Origin: an uncultured Candidatus Saccharibacteria bacterium
GTDB lineage: Bacteria; Patescibacteriota; Minisyncoccia; Phycocordibacterales; UBA5272
Length of the DNA: 64,000 bases
Assembly (NCBI GenBank): GCA_964512315.1
Contig: CAZEIK010000002.1
Location: 45,304 to 109,303, forward strand
Reading direction: 5' to 3'
The position numbers were made by a program, and so were the translations under genes. Below the pieces are notes generated by a model. The model searched no databases. It worked only from the letters and a program-made list of their open reading frames with translations, and was not told the origin of the DNA. Positions 14,214 to 46,854 of this stretch are shown in pieces. Each line of letters begins with the position of its first letter. Positions within the stretch are counted from its first letter, which is position 1.

Positions 14214-14873
14214 CTAACTGCTGTGTACTAACTTTCGTATTATTAAGCTTTGGAATATTCCAAATATATTAGCGATTACGAAATATAAGGTCAGTCCTGC
14301 TGGCAGGAAAATACTGGATATTAATATAAGTAGGGGCATCATATATTTCATCTGTATAGACATCATTTTGGCGAACTCTTTCTGAAAGCCATCCTTCATC
14401 TCTTCTGTCTTCATGTCTTTGGTGCTAACCTGCATCAAAATAAACATAGAAACAAAAGCAAGCCCGGCCAGAATCAGGCTTCTGTGTGATATATCTATAT
14501 AAGAGAACATTAATTGGCTACCAGCCAAATGTATCTCATTTTTGATAATTATGTACAAACCAAAAACAATTGGTATCTGAATAAACAGATTCAAAATAGA
14601 AGAGAAAGGTTTGATTCCGTTTTCTTTATACAAATTAGAAAGTTCTCTTCCTAGGTCTTGTGGGCTGTTTTTATGTTTCTCTCTTAATTTTTCAACTTCC
14701 GACTGAACCAGCTTCATACCTTTTGTGGTTTTTGCTGCCGAAAGGTTGAGCGGGAAAAGTAAAATCTTAACAAAAACCGTAAACATTACTATAGCGAGTC
14801 CAACATCCCCAGAAATTGATAGGAAAAAGTGTAAGGCGCTTGATAGGGGGGTTATTACTAAACTGTTCCACAT
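14214..14873 (-). CDS. yidC: membrane protein insertase YidC (short Gram-positive/CPR form)
   Basis: 219 aa. Lies directly downstream of rnpA in the conserved rpmH-rnpA-yidC arrangement. Confidence 0.85.
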   Translation of the reverse strand: MWNSLVITPLSSALHFFLSISGDVGLAIVMFTVFVKILLFPLNLSAAKTTKGMKLVQSEVEKLREKHKNSPQDLGRELSNLYKENGIKPFSSILNLFIQIPIVFGLYIIIKNEIHLAGSQLMFSYIDISHRSLILAGLAFVSMFILMQVSTKDMKTEEMKDGFQKEFAKMMSIQMKYMMPLLILISSIFLPAGLTLYFVIANIFGIFQSLIIRKLVHSS

Positions 14874-15163
14874 ATATCTTTTTTAATTTCTTTGTATTTA
14901 GGTATTTTTGATAAAGCTTTTTTAGTGTAGATAAAGAATGTTTTGTTTTCTTTTTCTAGAAACTGCCTATAAGCATAACATAGTCTTCTTTTTAAAAGAT
15001 GTCTCTGATTTGCTTTTTTAATGTGTTTCTTGGATATTATTACAACCAAACCCTTTTTTTCTTTATTTTCTTTAATGTTAAAAAGATCAGAGTTTTTATC
15101 TGATCTTTTTAATTCAATACTGTCTATCTGTTTCTTTGTAAGGCGGTTTTGCCTGTTTAACAT
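14858..15163 (-). CDS. rnpA: ribonuclease P protein component
   Basis: 101-aa basic protein (NRLTKKQ...). Between rpmH and yidC in the conserved order. Confidence 0.75.
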   Translation of the reverse strand: MLNRQNRLTKKQIDSIELKRSDKNSDLFNIKENKEKKGLVVIISKKHIKKANQRHLLKRRLCYAYRQFLEKENKTFFIYTKKALSKIPKYKEIKKDICGTV

Positions 15164-15169
15164 ATATAA

Positions 15170-15307
15170 CTAATCTGCTGATAGTTTCTTGCGGCCCTTT
15201 TGTCTTCTAGCAGAAATAACCTTTTTTCCTGTAGCAGAGGCCATTCTAACCAGAAATCCGTGTGTTGTGTATCTCTTTTTGTTTTTTGGGTTATAAGTTA
15301 CTGACAT
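15170..15307 (-). CDS. rpmH: 50S ribosomal protein L34
   Basis: Not in the ORF track (under 60 aa). Minus-strand translation is [45 protein letters not shown], the L34 signature. Sits upstream of rnpA. Confidence 0.8.
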
Positions 15308-15386
15308 AGGGGGTATTCTATAACAATTAAAAGATTTTGACAAGGTACACTTTCTTCAAAATAAAGCGTATACTCTAACTCACGAT

Positions 15387-16724
15387 ATGGACTACGAACA
15401 GCTTTGGAATACGGTATTGTCTCAAATTGGTTTAGAAGTTTCTCGGGTTAACTTCAACACTTGGTTCAAAAATTCAAGAATGGTTGATTATAAAGACGGC
15501 GACGTAACAGTTGGTGTGCCCAATCAATTCATAAAAGACTGGTTGGAGCAAAAATACCATAAAGACATTTTAAGAATACTGCGATCTGTTCATGAGGGGG
15601 TTAGGTCTTTATCTTTTTCTGTTGTAAGATTTGACGTTCCTCCTAAAAAAACTCAAGTAATACAAACAAATAACGGCTCTTTACCTCTAGATAACCTTTA
15701 TATAAATAGAGAAGATGGGCTTAATCCTAAATACACGTTTGATAGTTATATTGTAGGGCCATTTAACGAAATAGCTTATGTTTCTGCGCAAGCAATAATA
15801 CAAAATCCAGGTCTTTCTTATAATCCTTTCTTTGTTTATGGTAATACAGGCCTAGGCAAAACACACCTTCTACAGGCTGTAGGTAATGCTGTTAAGAAAA
15901 AATACCCCGAAAAAAAGGTTTTTTATATCTCTTTGGAGCGTTTTTATATGGAGTATGTGAACGCCCTTAATCAAAGCCGTGTTCCAAATTTCAAAGAAAA
16001 ATATAGAAAATTTGATGTTTTTATAATGGACGACATACAATTCATAACAGGTAAAGAGAAAACTCAGGATGAATTGTTCCACCTATTCAATATAATGTAC
16101 GAAACCAATCGTCAGATCATCTTTTCTTCAGATGTTCACCCTAATTTTATTATTGGTTTGGAGGAGAGGCTGCGCTCTCGTTTTAATCAAGGTATGGTTG
16201 TTGATGTTGAAGCTCCAACATTTGAATCGCGTCTTGCTATCTTGCAAAAAAAGGCGAAAGATCATTCTGATAAACTATCTCCTGAGGTTTTGGAGTTTAT
16301 AGCTGAGAGCGTCCATGGAAACATTAGAGAGCTTGAAGGCATTCTAACCAATCTTATAACTCAATGTGAGATCAAAAAGACTGTTTTAACCCTTATTGAC
16401 GTTAAAAGTTATTTAAAAAATAACATAAAAGCTAAAAAATCTGTATCTATACCAGAAATAGTAAAGACTGTCGCTGATTATTATCATGTTAATGATTCGC
16501 TTATATATAACAAAACAAGAAGAAAAGATATTATCAAGCCTCGCCAAATAATAATGTATATATTAAGAGAGGAGTATGATATATCTTATCCGGTGATTGG
16601 GGATAAGTTGGGTGGAAGGGATCATACCACTGTTATTCACTCTTATGAAAAAATAAAAAGAGAGCTTGAAAAAGACCCTCATTTAGCAAAAGAGATTGAC
16701 GACATACGCTCTATTATTGTTTAG
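15387..16724 (+). CDS. dnaA: chromosomal replication initiator DnaA
   Basis: AAA+ Walker A GNTGLGKTHLLQAVGN. Box VII/VIII and C-terminal helix-turn-helix (IIMYILREE...IGDKLGGRDHTTVIH). Confidence 0.95.
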   Translation: MDYEQLWNTVLSQIGLEVSRVNFNTWFKNSRMVDYKDGDVTVGVPNQFIKDWLEQKYHKDILRILRSVHEGVRSLSFSVVRFDVPPKKTQVIQTNNGSLPLDNLYINREDGLNPKYTFDSYIVGPFNEIAYVSAQAIIQNPGLSYNPFFVYGNTGLGKTHLLQAVGNAVKKKYPEKKVFYISLERFYMEYVNALNQSRVPNFKEKYRKFDVFIMDDIQFITGKEKTQDELFHLFNIMYETNRQIIFSSDVHPNFIIGLEERLRSRFNQGMVVDVEAPTFESRLAILQKKAKDHSDKLSPEVLEFIAESVHGNIRELEGILTNLITQCEIKKTVLTLIDVKSYLKNNIKAKKSVSIPEIVKTVADYYHVNDSLIYNKTRRKDIIKPRQIIMYILREEYDISYPVIGDKLGGRDHTTVIHSYEKIKRELEKDPHLAKEIDDIRSIIV

Positions 16725-16946
16725 TATTTTTTGTGTGTAAGTTGTGTATAACTTATCAAAGTTTTACAGAATTTAATTTGTATTGTTTTATTGATGTTAT
16801 TTATTTATATCTTTTCTTTATGTTTTTTGTTTTAAAAACCAAGATAAGTATTGATTTATAAGGTTTTAAAAGTTTTAAACCTAATCAACATATATATCTT
16901 TAATGTGAATTTTGTTTTTACTTATTAAAAGATTATAATTAACTAC
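16725..16946. promoter_or_regulatory. candidate oriC/DNA-unwinding region in the dnaA-dnaN spacer
   Basis: 222-nt strongly AT-rich spacer. Degenerate DnaA boxes TGTGTGTAA (16733-16741), TGTGTATAA (16743-16751) and TTATCAAA (16753-16760) versus consensus TGTGGATAA/TTATCCACA, then AT tracts. Confidence 0.45.
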
Positions 16947-18050
16947 ATGAAGTTCACCTGCCAAGCAAAAGACTTAAAAGATAAAATACAAAACCTTGCC
17001 AGAATATCGCTTAAGACAGGGCTAGATCCTATATTTGAATGTATTTATTTAGAAAATGAAGATCATAACCTAACATTAAGATCGGCTAATACTGAGATAA
17101 TTGCTGAGCAGAATATGCCGGTTAAAGCTGAAATAAATGGGTTATGTCTTGTGAATGCAGCACTTTTATCAAAAGTTCTATCTAATATATCAAAAAGCTC
17201 AGACATAGTAACTTTTGAGAGGGTTGATAATGTTTTAGTTATACAAAACGAGAACAATAGAACAGAAATTGATCTCTACAACGAATCAATGTTCCCTAAA
17301 ATACAAAATGGCGGGGAGAAAATGTTCTCAATAAACAGGGTTAAGTTTTTAGATTTGATAAAAAGTGTAGCTTTTTGTGCCGCTACAACAGAAATAAAAC
17401 CAGAAATAGCTAGTATTTATTTATATAATAAAGATAACAACCTATACGCCGTAGCAACAGACTCATATAGACTATCTGAGAATTGTATACCTTTTGAAGA
17501 AGAGTCTCAGATAAGCTTATTAATACCTCAGAAAAATATTAATCAAATCTTAGCGATATTAGGAGATGAAGAGAGTGAAACAATAGACGTTATAAAACAT
17601 AATGAGCTTATATTATTTGAAACAAAAACAAGTTTTGTGTCAACAAGATTAACTAACGGATCTTTTCCAGACTATAAACAACTTTTCCCTAAAGAATTCT
17701 TATTTAATTTCTCCGTCAGAAAAGAAGTTCTACAAAATGCTTTAGAATTATCTTCGATTATTACAAATCAAACCCCTATTTGTTCTTTTGAGTATAATAA
17801 AGACAAACAGACTATTAAAATATCCTCAGAGGAAAAAGGTGTTGGTCAAATGAGCAAAGAGATAACAGTAAAGTCAGAAAATCTTGAAGATATAAAGGTT
17901 TTTTATAACAGCAACTACTTCCTAGAGGGGCTATCTAAATTAAATGGTGATAATGTAACCCTGTCGTACACCACAACAAACAGGCCTGTATTTATCAAAT
18001 CAGAACAAAATACTAATTTTACGTATCTTTTAATGCCCATAAATAGATAA
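16947..18050 (+). CDS. dnaN: DNA polymerase III beta sliding clamp
   Basis: 367 aa immediately after dnaA. Confidence 0.85.
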   Translation: MKFTCQAKDLKDKIQNLARISLKTGLDPIFECIYLENEDHNLTLRSANTEIIAEQNMPVKAEINGLCLVNAALLSKVLSNISKSSDIVTFERVDNVLVIQNENNRTEIDLYNESMFPKIQNGGEKMFSINRVKFLDLIKSVAFCAATTEIKPEIASIYLYNKDNNLYAVATDSYRLSENCIPFEEESQISLLIPQKNINQILAILGDEESETIDVIKHNELILFETKTSFVSTRLTNGSFPDYKQLFPKEFLFNFSVRKEVLQNALELSSIITNQTPICSFEYNKDKQTIKISSEEKGVGQMSKEITVKSENLEDIKVFYNSNYFLEGLSKLNGDNVTLSYTTTNRPVFIKSEQNTNFTYLLMPINR

Positions 18051-34843: not shown

Positions 34844-34880
34844 AAAGCGGTTTTGATTTTCTTAACGTTTTTGTATTTTT

Positions 34881-34950
34881 AGCAGGATTCGGTCACAAAA
34901 CATATTCCGCTGACACTACATTGTTTCGCGACCCCGTATTCGAATCCTGA
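34881..34950 (-). repeat. conserved tRNA-associated element, copy A (ends in a copy of the tRNA-Lys T-arm)
   Basis: Shares TCGAATACGGGGTCGCGAAA and ATATGTTTTGTGACCGAATCCT (tRNA sense) with the copies at 43448-43521 and 38537-38581. Terminal 11 nt are identical to tRNA-Lys 35008-35018. Confidence 0.6.
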
Positions 34951-35000
34951 CAAAAGACGCCCTGGCGTCTTTCTCTGTGTTCACAATTTTTACAAAATTG

Positions 35001-35073
35001 TGCCCCCAGCAGGATTCGAACCTGCGACCATCTGCTTAAAAGGCAGTTGCTCTACCGACTGAGCTATAGGGGC
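35001..35073 (-). tRNA. tRNA-Lys (anticodon UUU)
   Basis: Cloverleaf GCCCCTATAGCTCAGTCGGTAGAGCAACTGCCTTTTAAGCAGATGGTCGCAGGTTCGAATCCTGCTGGGGGCA. Anticodon loop CTTTTAA. Confidence 0.85.
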
Positions 35074-35357: not shown

Positions 35358-36271
35358 TTATTTCTGGCAATTGGGGCAGAATACTGTAGTGCGGCCAGAT
35401 ATAATCATTTTTTCTAAAACACTTCTACATCTCACACATTTTTCTCCAGCTCGGCCGTACACTTTGTGTTCACGTGCAAAGTTACCACGACTGCCATCAG
35501 CTAGTAGATAGTCCGATATAGAAGATCCGCCTAGGTCTATTGCTCGCTGAAGTATTGAGATTATATTTTTATAAATAAGAGATATCTCTTGCTTACTCAA
35601 TGTCTTACAATTCCTATCGGGCCTAACCTTAGAAGCAAAACATACTTCATCTGCATATATATTGCCACACCCAACCACAACAGACTGCTCGAGTAGCACC
35701 GTCTTAATGGCTTTGTTTTTTTTAAAATATTTTCTTTAAAGTGGTCTAAAGTAAAGTTTGCGTCAAATGGTTCGAGGCCTATTTTATCGAAATGTTTTTG
35801 GCTTATTGCTTCTTGCTCACTTTTGTAATGCAAGACATAGCCGAATTGTCTGACGTCATTGTAGTATAAGTTGCCACGGTCTAACTCGAATATTATGTGA
35901 GTATGCTTGTGGGGCAGTGGCTGCCTGTACGACTCCTCTATCGGGTGGCCACCAGTCACTATGTCATTTTTGGTTTTGTTATTGGTTTCGTCTACGTAAA
36001 CAAGTTGCCCGGTCATTTTTAAATGAATTAGAACAACATCACCTTCTGTTGTTTTTATTATTAAGTTTTTGGCACGACGAGAAACAGAGTCTATGGTTTT
36101 ACCTTCTAAAAGTTCTTCAAAGTTTGTGGCTTTTATGTTGCTTGCCTTTCTGATTGTTCCAGATCCTGATACTATTTTTTTATTTTTTACAGTGACTTTT
36201 CTGATGATTCTCTTTTTAAGAACTTTGTCTAAACCTTTTCTTAGTGACTCTACTTCAGGTAGTTCCGGCAT
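35358..36271 (-). pseudogene. mutM: formamidopyrimidine-DNA glycosylase (mutM/fpg) interrupted by a frameshift
   Basis: ORF 35597-36271 gives the MPELPEVE... N-terminal half. ORF 35358-35699 in another frame gives the H2TH and zinc-finger half (GNIYADE...CxxC...CPNCQ). The frames switch near a T8/A8 homopolymer at about 35708-35720. Confidence 0.75.
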
Positions 36272-38429: not shown

Positions 38430-38501
38430 GCTCTCGTAGTTCAATGGATAGAATTCAGGTTTGCGGTACCTGCGATGTAGGTTCGATTCCTACCGAGAGC
38501 A
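38430..38501 (+). tRNA. tRNA-Arg (anticodon read as GCG)
   Basis: GCTCTCGTAGTTCAATGGATAGAATTCAGGTTTGCGGTACCTGCGATGTAGGTTCGATTCCTACCGAGAGCA. Acceptor, D, anticodon (CAGGT/ACCTG) and T stems all pair. Loop TTGCGGT. Confidence 0.7.
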
Positions 38502-38536
38502 CTAAAAATTAAAGAAAATCAAACATGGTTTTCAAT

Positions 38537-38581
38537 TGAGTGAAGTGACTATATTTTGTGACCGATTCCTACCGAGAGCAC
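38537..38581 (+). repeat. conserved tRNA-associated element, truncated copy C (ends in a copy of the tRNA-Arg 3' end)
   Basis: GAGTGAAGTGACTATATTTTGTGACCGATTCCTA is 36/37 identical to copy B. Terminal CGATTCCTACCGAGAGCAC duplicates tRNA 38483-38501. Confidence 0.6.
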
Positions 38582-40478: not shown

Positions 40479-40565
40479 GGAAGTGTGGCCGAGTGGTTTA
40501 AGGCACCTGTCTTGAAAACAGACGACCCCTTAAAGGTCCGTGAGTTCGAATCTCACCACTTCCGC
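40479..40565 (+). tRNA. tRNA-Ser (anticodon UGA)
   Basis: GGAAGTGTGGCCGAGTGGTTTAAGGCACCTGTCTTGAAAACAGACG... with a long variable arm and GAGTTCGAATCTC T-arm. Matches the canonical tRNA-Ser(UGA) architecture from memory. Confidence 0.85.
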
Positions 40566-43447: not shown

Positions 43448-43521
43448 GGTGTCCCTGCTAGGAATCGGTCACAAAATATAGTCGCTTCACTCCTTATTTC
43501 GCGACCCCGTATTCGACTCCT
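43448..43521 (-). repeat. conserved tRNA-associated element, copy B (ends in a copy of the tRNA-Arg(UCU) 3' end)
   Basis: Shares TCGAATACGGGGTCGCGAAA and GAGTGAAGCGACTATATTTTGTGACCGATTCCTA (tRNA sense) with copies A and C. Terminal GATTCCTAGCAGGGACACC matches tRNA 3' end GATTCCTAGCGGGGACA with one mismatch. Confidence 0.6.
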
Positions 43522-43563
43522 AAAAGCAAAACCTAAGTTTTGCTTTTGTGTACACTTTACAAG

Positions 43564-43635
43564 TGTCCCCGCTAGGAATCGAACCTAGATCTAGAGCTTA
43601 GAAGGCTCTCGTTCTATCCATTGAACTACGGGGAC
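43564..43635 (-). tRNA. tRNA-Arg (anticodon UCU)
   Basis: GTCCCCGTAGTTCAATGGATAGAACGAGAGCCTTCTAAGCTCTAGATCTAGGTTCGATTCCTAGCGGGGACA. Anticodon loop CTTCTAA. Confidence 0.8.
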
Positions 43636-44421: not shown

Positions 44422-44497
44422 TGGTGGGGGATAAGGGATTTGAACCCCTGACCTTCGCAGTGTAAATGCGCTGCTCTACCAACTGAGCTAATCCCCC
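44422..44497 (-). tRNA. tRNA-Val (anticodon UAC), CCA encoded
   Basis: GGGGGATTAGCTCAGTTGGTAGAGCAGCGCATTTACACTGCGAAGGTCAGGGGTTCAAATCCCTTATCCCCCACCA. Loop TTTACAC. Confidence 0.85.
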
Positions 44498-45745: not shown

Positions 45746-45759
45746 ATAATGCGCGACAT

Positions 45760-45841
45760 GCCCAGGTGGCGAAATTGGTAGACGCACTACCTTGAGGTGG
45801 TAGCGAGGCAACTCGTGCTGGTTCAAATCCAGTCTTGGGCA
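45760..45841 (+). tRNA. tRNA-Leu (anticodon GAG)
   Basis: GCCCAGGTGGCGAAATTGGTAGACGCACTACCTTGAGGTGGTAG... with a long variable arm and TTCAAATCC T-loop. Confidence 0.8.
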
Positions 45842-45851
45842 CCCAAAATAT

Positions 45852-46778: not shown

Positions 46779-46854
46779 GGTGGCTATAGTGTAATGGTTA
46801 GCACGCGGGCTTGTGGAGCCCTCAGTTCGGGTTCGAATCCCGATAGCCACACCA
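46779..46854 (+). tRNA. tRNA-His (anticodon GUG) with extra 5' G(-1) and encoded CCA
   Basis: G-GTGGCTATAGTGTAATGGTTAGCACGCGGGCTTGTGGAGCCCTCAGTTCGGGTTCGAATCCCGATAGCCACACCA. Loop TTGTGGA. Confidence 0.8.

Follow-up and report, generated by a model that had tools for sequence, protein, structure and literature searches.

Candidate miniature integrative elements with a folded core behind tRNA and tmRNA genes of Patescibacteria

Results

Three tRNA genes of the window are followed by related elements

The window, that is, the whole 64,000-nt stretch of Candidatus Saccharibacteria DNA that was analyzed, was searched for tRNA genes using ARAGORN and Rfam. Three of its seven tRNA genes carry a related element directly downstream, and the element is absent from the other four. 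The features of the three loci are as follows.

35001-35073, minus strand: intact tRNA-Lys(UUU) (ARAGORN; Rfam, 76 bits; sequence)
35018-35001 plus CAA at 35000-34998, minus strand: block a, the upstream repeat copy, comprising the last 18 nt of tRNA-Lys and CAA (sequence)
34892-35018, minus strand: copy A, a 127-nt insertion from tRNA C56 to the base before the downstream duplicate (alignment with the empty alleles L105 and L107)
34984-35000, minus strand: smaller hairpin of copy A, CAAUUUUGUAAAAAUUG (sequence)
34953-34972, minus strand: terminator-like hairpin of copy A, AAAGACGCCAGGGCGUCUUU, between the tRNA and the conserved hairpin (sequence)
34941-34949, minus strand: 5' strand of stem P0 in copy A, CAGGAUUCG (b'), an inverted copy of tRNA positions 56-64
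34934-34940, minus strand: one-sided internal loop of copy A, AAUACGG; the family-wide form is GAAUA(C)GG
34891-34933, minus strand: stem P2 of copy A, GGUCGCGAAACA / UGUUUUGUGACC, with two G.U pairs, around the variable tip H3
34871-34891, minus strand: downstream copy c of copy A, CGAAUCCUGCU; 11 nt are identical to the tRNA and make the P0 3' strand, followed by AAAAAUA instead of GGGGGCA and then by CAA
43564-43635, minus strand: tRNA-Arg(UCU) (ARAGORN, Rfam, sequence)
43563-43581, minus strand: block a at tRNA-Arg(UCU)
43468-43581, minus strand: copy B, a 114-nt unit (covariance model, 67 bits; fold; strain comparison)
43522-43547, minus strand: terminator-like hairpin of copy B
43514-43522, minus strand: P0 5' strand of copy B, UAGGAGUCG
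43507-43513, minus strand: loop of copy B, AAUACGG
43467-43506, minus strand: P2/H3 of copy B
43449-43467, minus strand: downstream copy c of copy B, CGAUUCCUAGCAGGGACAC; 18 of 19 positions agree with the tRNA 3' end
38430-38502, plus strand: tRNA-Arg(GCG), called at 38430-38501 (ARAGORN, Rfam, sequence)
38484-38502, plus strand: block a at tRNA-Arg(GCG)
38538-38562, plus strand: copy C, a remnant with only the 3' half of a B-type core (GAGUGAAGUGACUAUAUUUUGUGAC)
38563-38581, plus strand: downstream copy c of copy C, CGAUUCCUACCGAGAGCAC; 19 of 19 positions agree with the tRNA 3' end

Because of the repeat, copy A can be placed equivalently at 34871-34997. The terminator scan marked its hairpin stem at 34953-34972 on the plus strand only.

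The three copies had been proposed by a sequence-only reading, and they were recovered: motif TATTTTGTGACCGAWTCCT matched three times in the window, at these places only, against 0.04 matches expected, and a second motif, TCGAATACGGGGTCGCGAAA, matched twice against 0 expected. The terminal duplicates of the tRNA were as described there, with 11 nt exact in copy A (CGAATCCTGCT) and 19 nt exact in copy C. In copy B, 11 nt were exact, and one mismatch was found over the longer span of 19 nt. The inverted termini CAGGATTCG...CGAATCCTG were also present, and they make up the base of a long hairpin. Copy C holds a 3' half only, as had been claimed; it has neither the inverted copy nor the P2 5' strand, and it has a 34-nt repeat in common with copy B (97%). 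A covariance-model scan of the whole 64-kb window with filters off gave 77 bits for copy A (34879-34952), 67 bits for copy B and a weak partial match of only 8 bits for copy C, and found nothing convincing elsewhere. The sequence-only reading had missed the inverted repeat that covaries with the tRNA, the strand specificity of the core hairpin and the wide spread of the element in Patescibacteria.

The core is a strand-specific hairpin

In tRNA sense, the full unit runs from tRNA position 56 to about 76, through a terminator-like hairpin, an inverted copy of the tRNA and the loop GAAUACGG, to the P2/H3 hairpin. This hairpin ends ...UUGUGAC and is immediately adjoined by the second direct copy of the tRNA, which starts at C56. 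The core hairpin thus described has four parts: the base P0, the one-sided loop, the near-invariant stem P2 and the variable tip H3. In P0, the direct copy pairs with an inversion of tRNA positions 56-65, and this base covaries with the tRNA. Tandem G.A motifs are present in the hairpin, and both G.U pairs of P2 are invariant.

The hairpin and its strand specificity were confirmed. In RNA folds, the strand in tRNA sense reached -26.3 kcal/mol in copy A (z -3.5) and -25.8 in copy B (z -4.5), in comparison with -18.1 and -14.1, respectively, on the opposite strand. When copy B was folded as DNA, z was only -1.45, and the G.U pairs together with the fold energies point to RNA over DNA. Paired cells amounted to 91%, against 82% in shuffles, and double-change cells numbered 95, against 33 in shuffles; none of 500 shuffles attained 95. 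Within P0, G.T was about four times commoner than A.C. Among the loci examined, 55 of 56 distinct core hairpins were followed by tRNA-like sequence, with a GA start in 53. GC skew was positive over the whole window, which places the folding of copies A and B on the leading-strand template and leaves a mechanism biased to the lagging-strand template unsupported.

Several readings of the core were rejected. A resemblance to the 5' end of E. coli tmRNA (GGAUUCGAC..GGG..GCGAAAC) did not hold against a tmRNA from within the lineage. The tmRNA found at L055 (L numbers denote individual loci or contigs) starts GGGGGUGAUCUUUGGCUUCGACAUAUAAAA and has nothing further in common with the core, and ARAGORN called no tmRNA at the copies. 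The core motifs of hammerhead and other small ribozymes were absent on inspection, and Rfam gave nothing. A promoter for the downstream gene was dismissed, as the gene beyond copy A is convergent.

Direct and inverted copies of the tRNA 3' end

The tRNA, its duplicate and the inverted copy were compared in 32 copies. Direct repeats of the tRNA 3' part flank the insert, leaving one complete gene and one fragment. The repeat comprises 19-21 nt of the specific gene, and its left edge is always C56 of the T-loop, as in all three window copies. Identity reaches 1-3 nt beyond the discriminator, without CCA; the duplicate is therefore derived from DNA and not from mature tRNA. A reverse-transcribed mature tRNA (the primer-binding-site idea) was rejected, since the duplicates run into genomic CAA, CU or CAU at the CCA position. 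Patescibacteria are reportedly without group II introns (PMC13011429). A target-site duplication in the T-loop was also rejected, since the 5' arm is the complement (AAUCG, ACUCG), not a repeat, of CGAUU/CGAGU. A T-loop intron or split tRNA does not fit either, because the tRNA is already complete with the first 3' end, and the second is often acceptor-dead.

The inverted copy always spans the T-loop/T-stem part and in many copies the acceptor strand too, and it is sometimes interrupted by a second hairpin with the loop CUGC. Where tRNA and duplicate disagree, it agreed with the tRNA 11 times and with the duplicate in no more than two valid cases. At L083, the upstream and inverted copies are of Leu type and the duplicate and flank are of Arg type, which makes this locus a Leu/Arg recombinant. 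The upstream and inverted copies therefore travel together. Templating of the inverted copy anew at each insertion was rejected, as it is imperfect even where the direct copies are identical at 21 of 21 positions (L071, L006, L019). In the case of L053, the scaffold flanking the 10-nt inverted copy was nearly identical on both sides at two tRNAs.

Divergence of the duplicate was 5% in the hairpin-forming part and 31% in the acceptor part (p 1.6e-13), and the acceptor strand of the second tRNA 3' end is often dead. A tRNA-like minihelix RNA with an acceptor stem was rejected on the unconserved acceptor part. The related proposal of an RNA that mimics a tRNA 3' end did not hold, since the acceptor part decays freely and only the part that pairs in the hairpin is kept, and since an allele of tRNA-Lys without the element exists. 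The copy A duplicate differs from the empty-site sequence by six transitions in 7 nt; by sequence, an element-borne duplicate inserted after the tRNA fits better than a recently displaced tRNA end. When strains were compared at copy B, the 41-nt core was identical between strains whose surrounding element differs at nine sites, and a compensatory pair was found in the terminator hairpin. The kept hairpin part and the unchanged core look like the outcome of selection in situ, which would not be predicted for a purely selfish waiting element.

Distribution and turnover between strains

The sequence-only reading had named a lack of additional copies, in this genome or in relatives, as grounds for its refutation; dozens more copies were found in related genomes, and the reading withstood this check. 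In total, about 60 copies are known from Saccharibacteria, Nomurabacteria and unbinned metagenome contigs, all in tRNA orientation. The units are 79-250 nt in length and gene-less, and their targets are at least 21 anticodons and one tmRNA gene (L055; Rfam tmRNA, 85.8 bits; smpB upstream). Most copies outside Saccharibacteria have a conserved terminator-like hairpin with a U run ahead of the structure. Rfam matched only tRNA and tmRNA, and an E-value search with copy B gave nothing meaningful. No published description of the element was found. A phage or plasmid origin was not supported: no copy of the element was found in IMG/VR, GenBank phages or PLSDB, where BLAST returned the tRNA part alone or nothing, the two-part pattern had no match in IMG/VR and 16-mer matches there were chance matches in coding sequence.

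At tRNA-Lys, four contigs (L105-L108) carry an empty allele, in which the tRNA is followed directly by CAAAAACGTTAAG. The window and L104 carry exactly 127 nt more with identical flanks, and alignment of the window allele with L105 and L107 showed one single 127-nt gap. The element is therefore evidently dispensable at tRNA-Lys. In a third allele (L110), a solitary 43-nt GGGGTCG...GTGACC hairpin stands without tRNA copies. At tRNA-Arg(GCG), strains with identical S20 protein carry either the core 3' half with the duplicate or the left hairpins only. Tandem arrays of two structurally different units follow one tRNA at L063, L067 and L066, and nested palindromes lie within other copies at L053 and L067. 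These data showed that a unit can be present or absent as a block between close strains and that differing units replace each other or stack at one tRNA. Homologous recombination alone could spread such presence/absence alleles. At tRNA-Arg(UCU), L095 and L097 have a plain terminator in place of the element. They were rejected as an empty site for copy B, since the whole segment to the next gene differs and the comparison is not clean.

Neighboring genes

The genes flanking the copies are housekeeping genes. Because the units (79-250 nt) are too short, no recombinase gene lies inside them. No recombinase family was found among the families common to at least two of 150 nearby ORFs, and no locally encoded recombinase was found among the ORFs around copies or the window proteins scanned. 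The proteins scanned, a small sample, contained no Y1 transposase. No cassette array or intI was found nearby, and the collections searched gave no parent IS, transposase or free circular form. Larger islands with large serine recombinases do occupy tRNA 3' ends in these genomes (L068, L110). The L068 island is 6 kb in length and has a different junction; the mini-element lies at its far side, and the island's own decayed tRNA remnant stands between the two. One strain island contains an RVT_1 gene.

Discussion

We consider it about an even chance that the family is a non-autonomous miniature integrative element, site-specific for the T-loop and 3' end of tRNA and tmRNA genes in Patescibacteria. 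A miniature tRNA-targeting mobile element was one of three readings offered from the sequence alone, and it is the best supported of them, by the exact 127-nt presence or absence at tRNA-Lys, the differing remnants at tRNA-Arg(GCG), the tandem unlike units and the tmRNA target. Integration into tRNA genes generally yields one complete gene and one fragment (PMC9897764), and attB sites in the T-loop are known (PMC1762012). By the same logic as in integrase-borne islands, the unit would supply its own tRNA 3' end and terminator, so that the gene stays intact, and the downstream copy would be the displaced original end (attR-like). The attachment site may be the folded hairpin itself, by analogy with CTX phage attP and integron attC, which are folded single-stranded sites that undergo single strand exchange (PMC3442271, PMC5027507). 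The inverted copy would let one strand fold, with a putative crossover GUGAC|CGA in a target-mimicking duplex opposite the bulge. This geometry resembles that of CTX attP+ and attC, on which a trans-acting tyrosine recombinase carries out one strand exchange that replication then completes. For copy A, the predicted circle junction is ...AATATGTTTTGTGAC|CGAATCCTGCTGGGGGCACAATTTTGTAAAAATTG. The mobile-element reading leaves unaccounted for how tRNA-matched direct and inverted copies came to be on one scaffold for more than 20 targets.

A further-reaching version, which we regard as unlikely, is a self-contained, protein-less mobile DNA with its target written in nucleic acid, whose T-arm copies form the base of the folded site and which is excised as a single-stranded circle and served by a housekeeping or helper recombinase. 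Since the direct and inverted T-arm copies would make the folded base, re-addressing would need a change of only about 10 nt between constant parts of the scaffold. The excised form would be a nearly fully self-complementary single-stranded circle of about 110-250 nt, shaped as a rod or dumbbell. It would comprise H3-P2-P0, a three-way junction with the CUGC hairpin and the terminator hairpin lengthened by acceptor/anti-acceptor pairing.

Known systems share parts of this layout. Integrase-borne islands and prophages at tRNA or tmRNA genes are also bordered by an intact tRNA at one end and by a direct repeat of the tRNA 3' part at the other. They likewise have a repeat from the T-loop to just past the 3' end, with the T-loop sublocation of mycobacteriophage Ms6, and tmRNA targets, tandem accretion and presence or absence between strains. 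In contrast, the units here are 79-250 nt, gene-less, with an inverted target copy, a hairpin abutting the junction and no integrase nearby. CTX attP(+), IMEX and attC likewise have an inverted duplication of the attachment sequence, a strand that folds into a duplex site, an unpaired stretch opposite the crossover region and a hairpin tip of variable length, and IMEX and integron cassettes encode no recombinase of their own. However, their target is dif or attI and not a tRNA T-loop, the CTX phage is about 100 times larger, and single-stranded recombination is only inferred for the present elements. On inspection, no attC boxes (GTTRRRY/RYYYAAC) were evident at the hairpin, whose base, unlike that of attC, is the T-arm sequence (CGAWUCC...) and varies with the tRNA. 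No dif-like (XerC/XerD) arms were recognized in it, and integration is at tRNA/tmRNA T-loops, not at dif. MITEs are marked by terminal inverted repeats, a short duplication of fixed length and a known transposase family; these were not found, and the repeat here is 19-21 nt and gene-specific. CIMEs are cis-mobilizable elements bounded by attL and attR, with att sites and without recombination genes, that depend on an integrase in trans; they are kilobases in length, derive from a known ICE and have a single target. The present family would similarly be non-autonomous and integrated and depend on a trans integrase, but it has units of about 100-250 nt, more than 20 targets and a folded core. 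At casposon insertions (PMC5137440), as here, the tRNA is intact and a copy of its 3' end stands on either side of the insert. Casposons are large, with Cas1 and polymerase genes, a duplication of about 14-15 bp and terminal inverted repeats, none of which is found here; the genes are ruled out because the units are too short.

The elements may instead be cis-acting structured RNAs, belonging to the 3' trailer of the tRNA or tmRNA or forming a small RNA. They would affect stability, termination or 3' processing; one way would be to keep an anti-T-arm segment from pairing with the tRNA. The position of all copies directly downstream of the gene and in its sense favors this, as do the invariant G.U pairs and tandem G.A, an RNA fold far better than antisense and shuffles, the core kept identical across strains, the compensatory pair and a duplicate that is kept where it forms the hairpin and decays elsewhere. 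At copies A and B, the tRNA strand has no terminator that the scan called strong, and therefore read-through is possible. However, such an RNA would be dispensable, given the element-less tRNA-Lys allele, the plain terminator of L095/L097 and its absence at four of the seven window tRNAs, and truncated remnants survive. The terminator-like hairpin with its U run precedes the structure in most non-Saccharibacteria copies, the element comes as a block insertion and stacks in tandem, and it belongs to no Rfam family. We judge the RNA explanation improbable. A little less probable again is that internal deletion of a larger island or prophage left each copy as an immobile residue. These tRNAs do receive large islands (L068, L110, L098), many copies are plainly decayed or truncated, and the mini-element at L068 lies on the far side of an island. 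The proposal of decayed scars holds for single copies (copy C, L090) and for the decayed acceptor part of many duplicates. It fails for the complete architecture, which dozens of loci, at more than 20 tRNAs, show in one order and within a narrow size range. At tRNA-Lys, the 127-nt unit is all that separates the filled allele from the empty one, no larger element with the core hairpin was found in any collection searched, and at L068 the junction differs and the tRNA remnant parts the island from the mini-element.

We assign the lowest probability to a REP/REPIN-like or IS200/IS605-derived palindrome. It would be mobilized in the form of single-stranded DNA by an HUH (Y1) transposase whose gene lies elsewhere, and DNA-DNA pairing of the inverted copy would guide it to the tRNA site. 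REPINs, REPs with RAYT and hairpin derivatives of IS200/IS605 are also gene-less imperfect palindromes (40-100 nt); their stem is conserved and their loop varies, and they are strand-specific and sited after genes and terminators. Gene-less copies with strand-specific imperfect hairpins at each unit end, the nested palindromes of L053 and L067, the solitary L110 hairpin and the guide-like 10-nt segment within a conserved scaffold agree with such an origin; in IS608, the target is read through base pairing with hairpin-adjacent sequence. However, the present copies are restricted to tRNA/tmRNA 3' ends and not dispersed, and in the window search copies lay at tRNAs only. They have a target-specific hairpin base and direct repeats of the target, which IS200/IS605 elements do not leave. 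Furthermore, the putative cut site lies within a duplex rather than a loop or a single-stranded flank, GC skew places the folding strand of copies A and B on the leading-strand template, and the proteins scanned, a small sample, held no Y1 transposase.

If the family is mobile, it is a counterpart of MITEs in the world of integrases, about 100-250 nt in length and gene-less, with a tRNA-specific address and a folded attachment site, and thriving within some of the smallest bacterial genomes. It would also exemplify harmless targeting of essential genes, in which the element supplies a terminator and a replacement for the 3' end. An exchangeable address of 10 nt within a constant scaffold could hint at a recombinase of programmable specificity. 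Should the unlikely protein-less version be true, no smaller integrative element would be known, and programmable site-specific insertion would have a new form. If the copies are RNA elements instead, they form a new, widespread class of structured RNA in Patescibacteria. The elements mark hot spots of strain-level variation in Saccharibacteria and are repeats that drive rearrangement between tRNA loci, as in the Leu/Arg hybrid of L083. The tRNA 3' fragments that they make can also mislead tRNA annotation.

A related element behind three tRNA genes of the window

Seven tRNA genes were found in the window, in agreement with Rfam, and three of them were followed by a related element.

35001-35073, minus strand: tRNA-Lys(UUU), element-bearing (copy A)
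38430-38501, plus strand: tRNA-Arg(GCG), element-bearing (copy C)
43564-43635, minus strand: tRNA-Arg(UCU), element-bearing (copy B)

The 19-mer TATTTTGTGACCGAWTCCT matched the window three times against 0.04 expected, and the 20-mer TCGAATACGGGGTCGCGAAA twice against 0 expected. The sequence-only reading had placed a related element behind these three genes, with the end of each copy repeating part of the adjacent tRNA; this observation was confirmed in detail. In all three copies the terminal repeat began at C56 of the T-loop, and it was exact over 11 nt in copy A, 11 nt in copy B (18 of 19 with one mismatch) and 19 nt in copy C, which lacked the 5' half. CCA was encoded in tRNA-Val, -Leu and -His (44422-44497, 45759-45845 and 46780-46854) and was not encoded in tRNA-Lys, both tRNA-Arg genes and tRNA-Ser (35001-35073, 38430-38501, 43564-43635 and 40479-40565); all three element-bearing tRNAs were CCA-less, but so was tRNA-Lys in its empty allele.

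Distribution and layout of the mini-element

Copies outside the window were found by genome scan, in metagenome contigs and with a covariance model. The scan, which covered one genome per species, returned 24 loci: seven true copies (in Saccharibacteria, one Nomurabacteria MAG and one unclassified MAG) and 17 that matched by chance within genes of unrelated bacteria. A two-part pattern matched 38 metagenome contigs, and the covariance model, built from the pattern-found copies, detected additional, more divergent copies within the same loci. An intact tRNA lay within about 150 nt upstream, in constant orientation, in 30 of 49 pattern-defined copies; of the others, most adjoined a contig end or followed either a further copy or the decayed 3' remnant of a tRNA. 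The element-bearing tRNAs had at least 21 anticodons, one copy (locus L055) stood behind a tmRNA gene (Rfam 85.8 bits; smpB upstream), and most tRNAs of a cluster bore an element in several contigs (L053, L060, L063, L076 and L077). Both tRNA and tmRNA genes are targeted, at the T-loop and 3' end.

The full unit of the non-Saccharibacteria copies started with tRNA positions 56 to about 76. Next came a conserved hairpin resembling a terminator (AAAAUAC-stem-GUAUUUU), then one of 9 bp with CUGC as its loop and, at the 3' end, an inverted T-arm copy, the core hairpin and the duplicate, which is a direct copy of the tRNA 3' part. The element carries direct and inverted copies of its target and no genes. 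The arms of the terminator-like hairpin were often longer, the acceptor 3' strand pairing with an inverted copy of itself, and in some copies, including L001 and L066, the inverted copy was uninterrupted over 19-20 nt. A second kind of perfect palindrome of 70-80 nt (GAAAAACCGG...CCGGTTTTTC / GAAAAAGCG...CGCTTTTTC) was seen at L053:7650-7727 and in L067 (about 190 nt behind tRNA-Gln). Its insertion site is the internal loop of mini-elements that belong to a divergent subfamily (core GGGGTCGAGACTTTG...CAAAGTGGTGACC), so that one palindrome is nested in another.

The core hairpin

The conserved part forms one long hairpin with four parts, read here in tRNA sense. At its base (P0), tRNA positions 56-65 recur in inverted form (CAGGAUUCG in copy A) and pair with the terminal duplicate. 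Then follow a one-sided internal loop, (G)AAUA(C)GG, the stem P2 (GGUCGCGAAAC / GUUUUGUGACC), which has two G.U pairs in 44 of 44 aligned copies, and a tip (H3) of variable length with abundant tandem G.A motifs. Among 44 distinct copies, 91% of the cells were paired, compared with 82% in shuffles and 35-48% with the partner slid; double-change cells numbered 95 against 33 in shuffles, and 0 of 500 shuffles reached the observed value. P0 varied along with the tRNA (at one position CG 19, AU 10, UA 6 and GC 2), and covariation was also seen in upper P2. The tRNA-sense strand gave a better fold than the complement, both as RNA and as DNA, and G.T outnumbered A.C about 4:1 in P0; therefore, one strand, of tRNA polarity, is what folds. 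The hairpin is strand-specific and conserved, and it matched no Rfam family.

The core 5' motif GGGGUCGCG (window 34932-34927 and 43505-43500; family consensus) is that of the variable-loop/T-stem junction of many tRNAs. At this junction the window tRNA-Lys carries GGUCGCAGG and E. coli tRNA-Asp GGGGGUCGCGGG. A tRNA 3' half may be the ancestor of the core.

Insertion alleles between strains

Contigs of closely related strains were retrieved via identical flanking proteins. Because these contigs differ by its presence, the mini-element is a discrete DNA insertion. At tRNA-Lys, four contigs had an empty allele, with CAAAAACGTTAAG directly after the tRNA, and the filled allele (the window and one other contig) had exactly 127 nt extra between identical flanks. 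In a third allele (strain contig L110), a solitary 43-nt GGGGTCG...GTGACC hairpin (GGGGTCGACTGAAATTTGAGTAAACAAATTTACAGGTGACC; L110:6792-6870, tRNA sense) stood in place, 13 nt behind tRNA-Lys, with neither inverted nor direct tRNA copy; it alone among 56 core-like hairpins had no tRNA-like sequence after it. At tRNA-Arg(GCG), strains with an identical S20 protein had either of two remnants: the 3' half of a B-type core together with a duplicate free of mismatches (the window allele), or nothing but the left hairpins of a different subfamily, the next gene being deleted.

At tRNA-Arg(UCU), some strains had copy B with nine substitutions, none within the 41-nt core and one of them a compensatory pair in the terminator hairpin. 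Other strains had a plain terminator and an ahpC gene, and in one (L098) the tRNA was chimeric and a different gene came after it. The chimera (L098:1310-1500, ERZ650296 NODE_9319; window 43564-43635) was identical to the window tRNA up to the anticodon stem and had another T-arm from the variable loop on; its acceptor 3' strand was one base too long (CGGAGGAC), and a Calx-beta gene came next. The arrangement resembles a junction of a different integrative element whose crossover lay on the anticodon side.

Tandem arrays in L063, L067 and L066 held two structurally different units behind one tRNA. The elements of L049 (tRNA-Arg-UCU) and L083 (tRNA-Leu-UAA) were about 93% identical by eye.

L083:1860-2170 versus L049:180-480: near-identical element pair

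L083 had Leu-type upstream and inverted copies, yet an Arg-type duplicate and Arg-locus flank, and is therefore recombinant between two loci. This implies a rearrangement, by deletion or inversion, between two tRNA loci through their elements.

Origin and fate of the tRNA copies

Identity of the two direct copies to each other stopped 1-3 nt past the discriminator, where genomic sequence and not CCA was found; therefore, the copy was made from DNA. In 32 copies, the duplicate differed from its own tRNA by 5.4% at positions 59-65 and by 30.9% at positions 66-73 (Fisher p 1.6e-13), and 56 of 79 changes at positions 66-73 were G/C to A/T. This pattern indicates that the copy was full-length at the start, and that its acceptor part decays while the hairpin-pairing part is kept. 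Where tRNA and duplicate mismatched in the first ten nt, the inverted copy agreed with the tRNA in 11 cases and with the duplicate in at most two valid ones, and several duplicates (L055, L063, L080 and L069) had 2-4-nt indels at positions 59-60, adjoining the junction. The divergence pattern, the inverted-copy matching and the junction indels fit a unit that would consist of the upstream 3' end, terminator, inverted copy and core, the downstream copy being the putative displaced chromosomal end. However, a cluster of transitions in copy A is a caveat to this reading and to the crossover position. Its duplicate has AAAAAUA, compared with GGGGGCA in the empty allele, i.e. six transitions in seven bases, flanked by 11 and 30 unchanged bases. 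This is more easily accounted for if the element brought the duplicate along and was inserted immediately behind the tRNA.

Nature of the element

The best explanation, held at about even odds, is a non-autonomous integrative element of miniature size, whose attachment site is folded and bears the target sequence; the chance of something more unusual is moderate. On integration, such an element would replace the tRNA 3' end and supply a terminator. The inverted copy would fold one strand and place the junction GUGAC|CGA in a duplex that mimics the tRNA gene, facing the GAAUACGG bulge. By analogy, this geometry would be shared with the sites of CTX phage and integron attC, which are single-stranded and folded; there, one strand is exchanged and replication resolves the product (PMC3442271, PMC5027507, PMC4792948). 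The excised form would be a single-stranded circle, almost fully self-paired. Conservation of the hairpin in place could possibly come from arm-to-arm correction within the palindrome, or from selection on a cis RNA role.

A cis-acting trailer RNA is a less likely rival. It is in keeping with the polarity, with the G.U pairs and with local conservation, but it does not explain why the structure is dispensable, is inserted as a block, leaves remnants and is preceded by a terminator-like hairpin. The hairpins and nested palindromes could also belong to a REPIN or an IS200/IS605-like single-stranded element; the restriction to tRNA genes, the direct repeats, the putative cut site within a duplex and the strand data do not fit that rival. 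The interpretations offered in the sequence-only reading were partly supported: the exact 127-nt strain difference favours a miniature tRNA-targeting mobile element, whereas integration scars of larger islands would account for individual decayed copies but not for the recurrent complete unit or for that allele difference.

With tRNA-integrating islands the mini-element shares attL/attR repeats and tRNA fragments, which are by-products of integration at tRNA genes (PMC9897764), and its T-loop site is like that of phage Ms6 (PMC1762012). However, such islands encode an integrase, and the mini-element does not. It is like folded att sites, yet by inspection is neither an attC nor a dif mimic, and like REPINs and MITEs, yet is tied to one target kind. 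Full-text literature searches found no published description of it; the nearest Patescibacteria tRNA-gene paper deals with anticodon-loop group I introns (PMC13011429).

Surrounding genes and larger islands

The window copies were neighboured by housekeeping genes (polA, fpg, Mur ligase, ruvA, rpsT, ruvX, rplS and others), and further window proteins scanned included dnaA, dnaN, ruvB, nusA and tig. Among 150 ORFs close to copies at 45 loci, no recombinase or transposase family was found in the families common to two or more members. GC skew was positive throughout the window, which puts folding of copies A and B on the leading-strand template and that of copy C on the lagging-strand one. The genes yidC, dnaA (15387-16724) and dnaN (16947-18050) lay in a low-GC stretch (32-35%; 14214-18050). 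On either side of the dnaA region the skew was still positive and genes were still on the plus strand, so it does not look like a chromosome skew switch point.

Larger islands, too, occupy sites at these tRNAs; the core hairpin was absent from the two described here. A 6-kb island between tRNA-Gln(UUG) and a mini-element (L068:8883-14790, Ga0194060_10001918) carried a large serine recombinase, whose ORF, on the strand opposite to the tRNA gene, overlapped that gene by about 60 nt, a G2P-type rolling-circle Rep (inovirus-like) and two peptidoglycan-binding proteins; the island may represent a single-stranded-DNA replicon that has integrated into a CPR genome. A defence-type island in one strain (L110:12400-20264, ERZ4208449 NODE_1591; window about 40565) began exactly at the tRNA-Ser(UGA) 3' end, where the window has a glyoxalase gene, and encoded a Shedu SduA_C nuclease, a large serine recombinase, an N6/N4 methyltransferase, an 812-aa protein and an RVT_1 reverse transcriptase.

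The formamidopyrimidine-DNA glycosylase gene fpg, a single 304-aa protein in related strains L084, L105 and L110, appeared split in the window (35358-36271, minus strand) into two ORFs, 224 and 113 aa long, reflecting either a frameshift/pseudogene or an assembly error.
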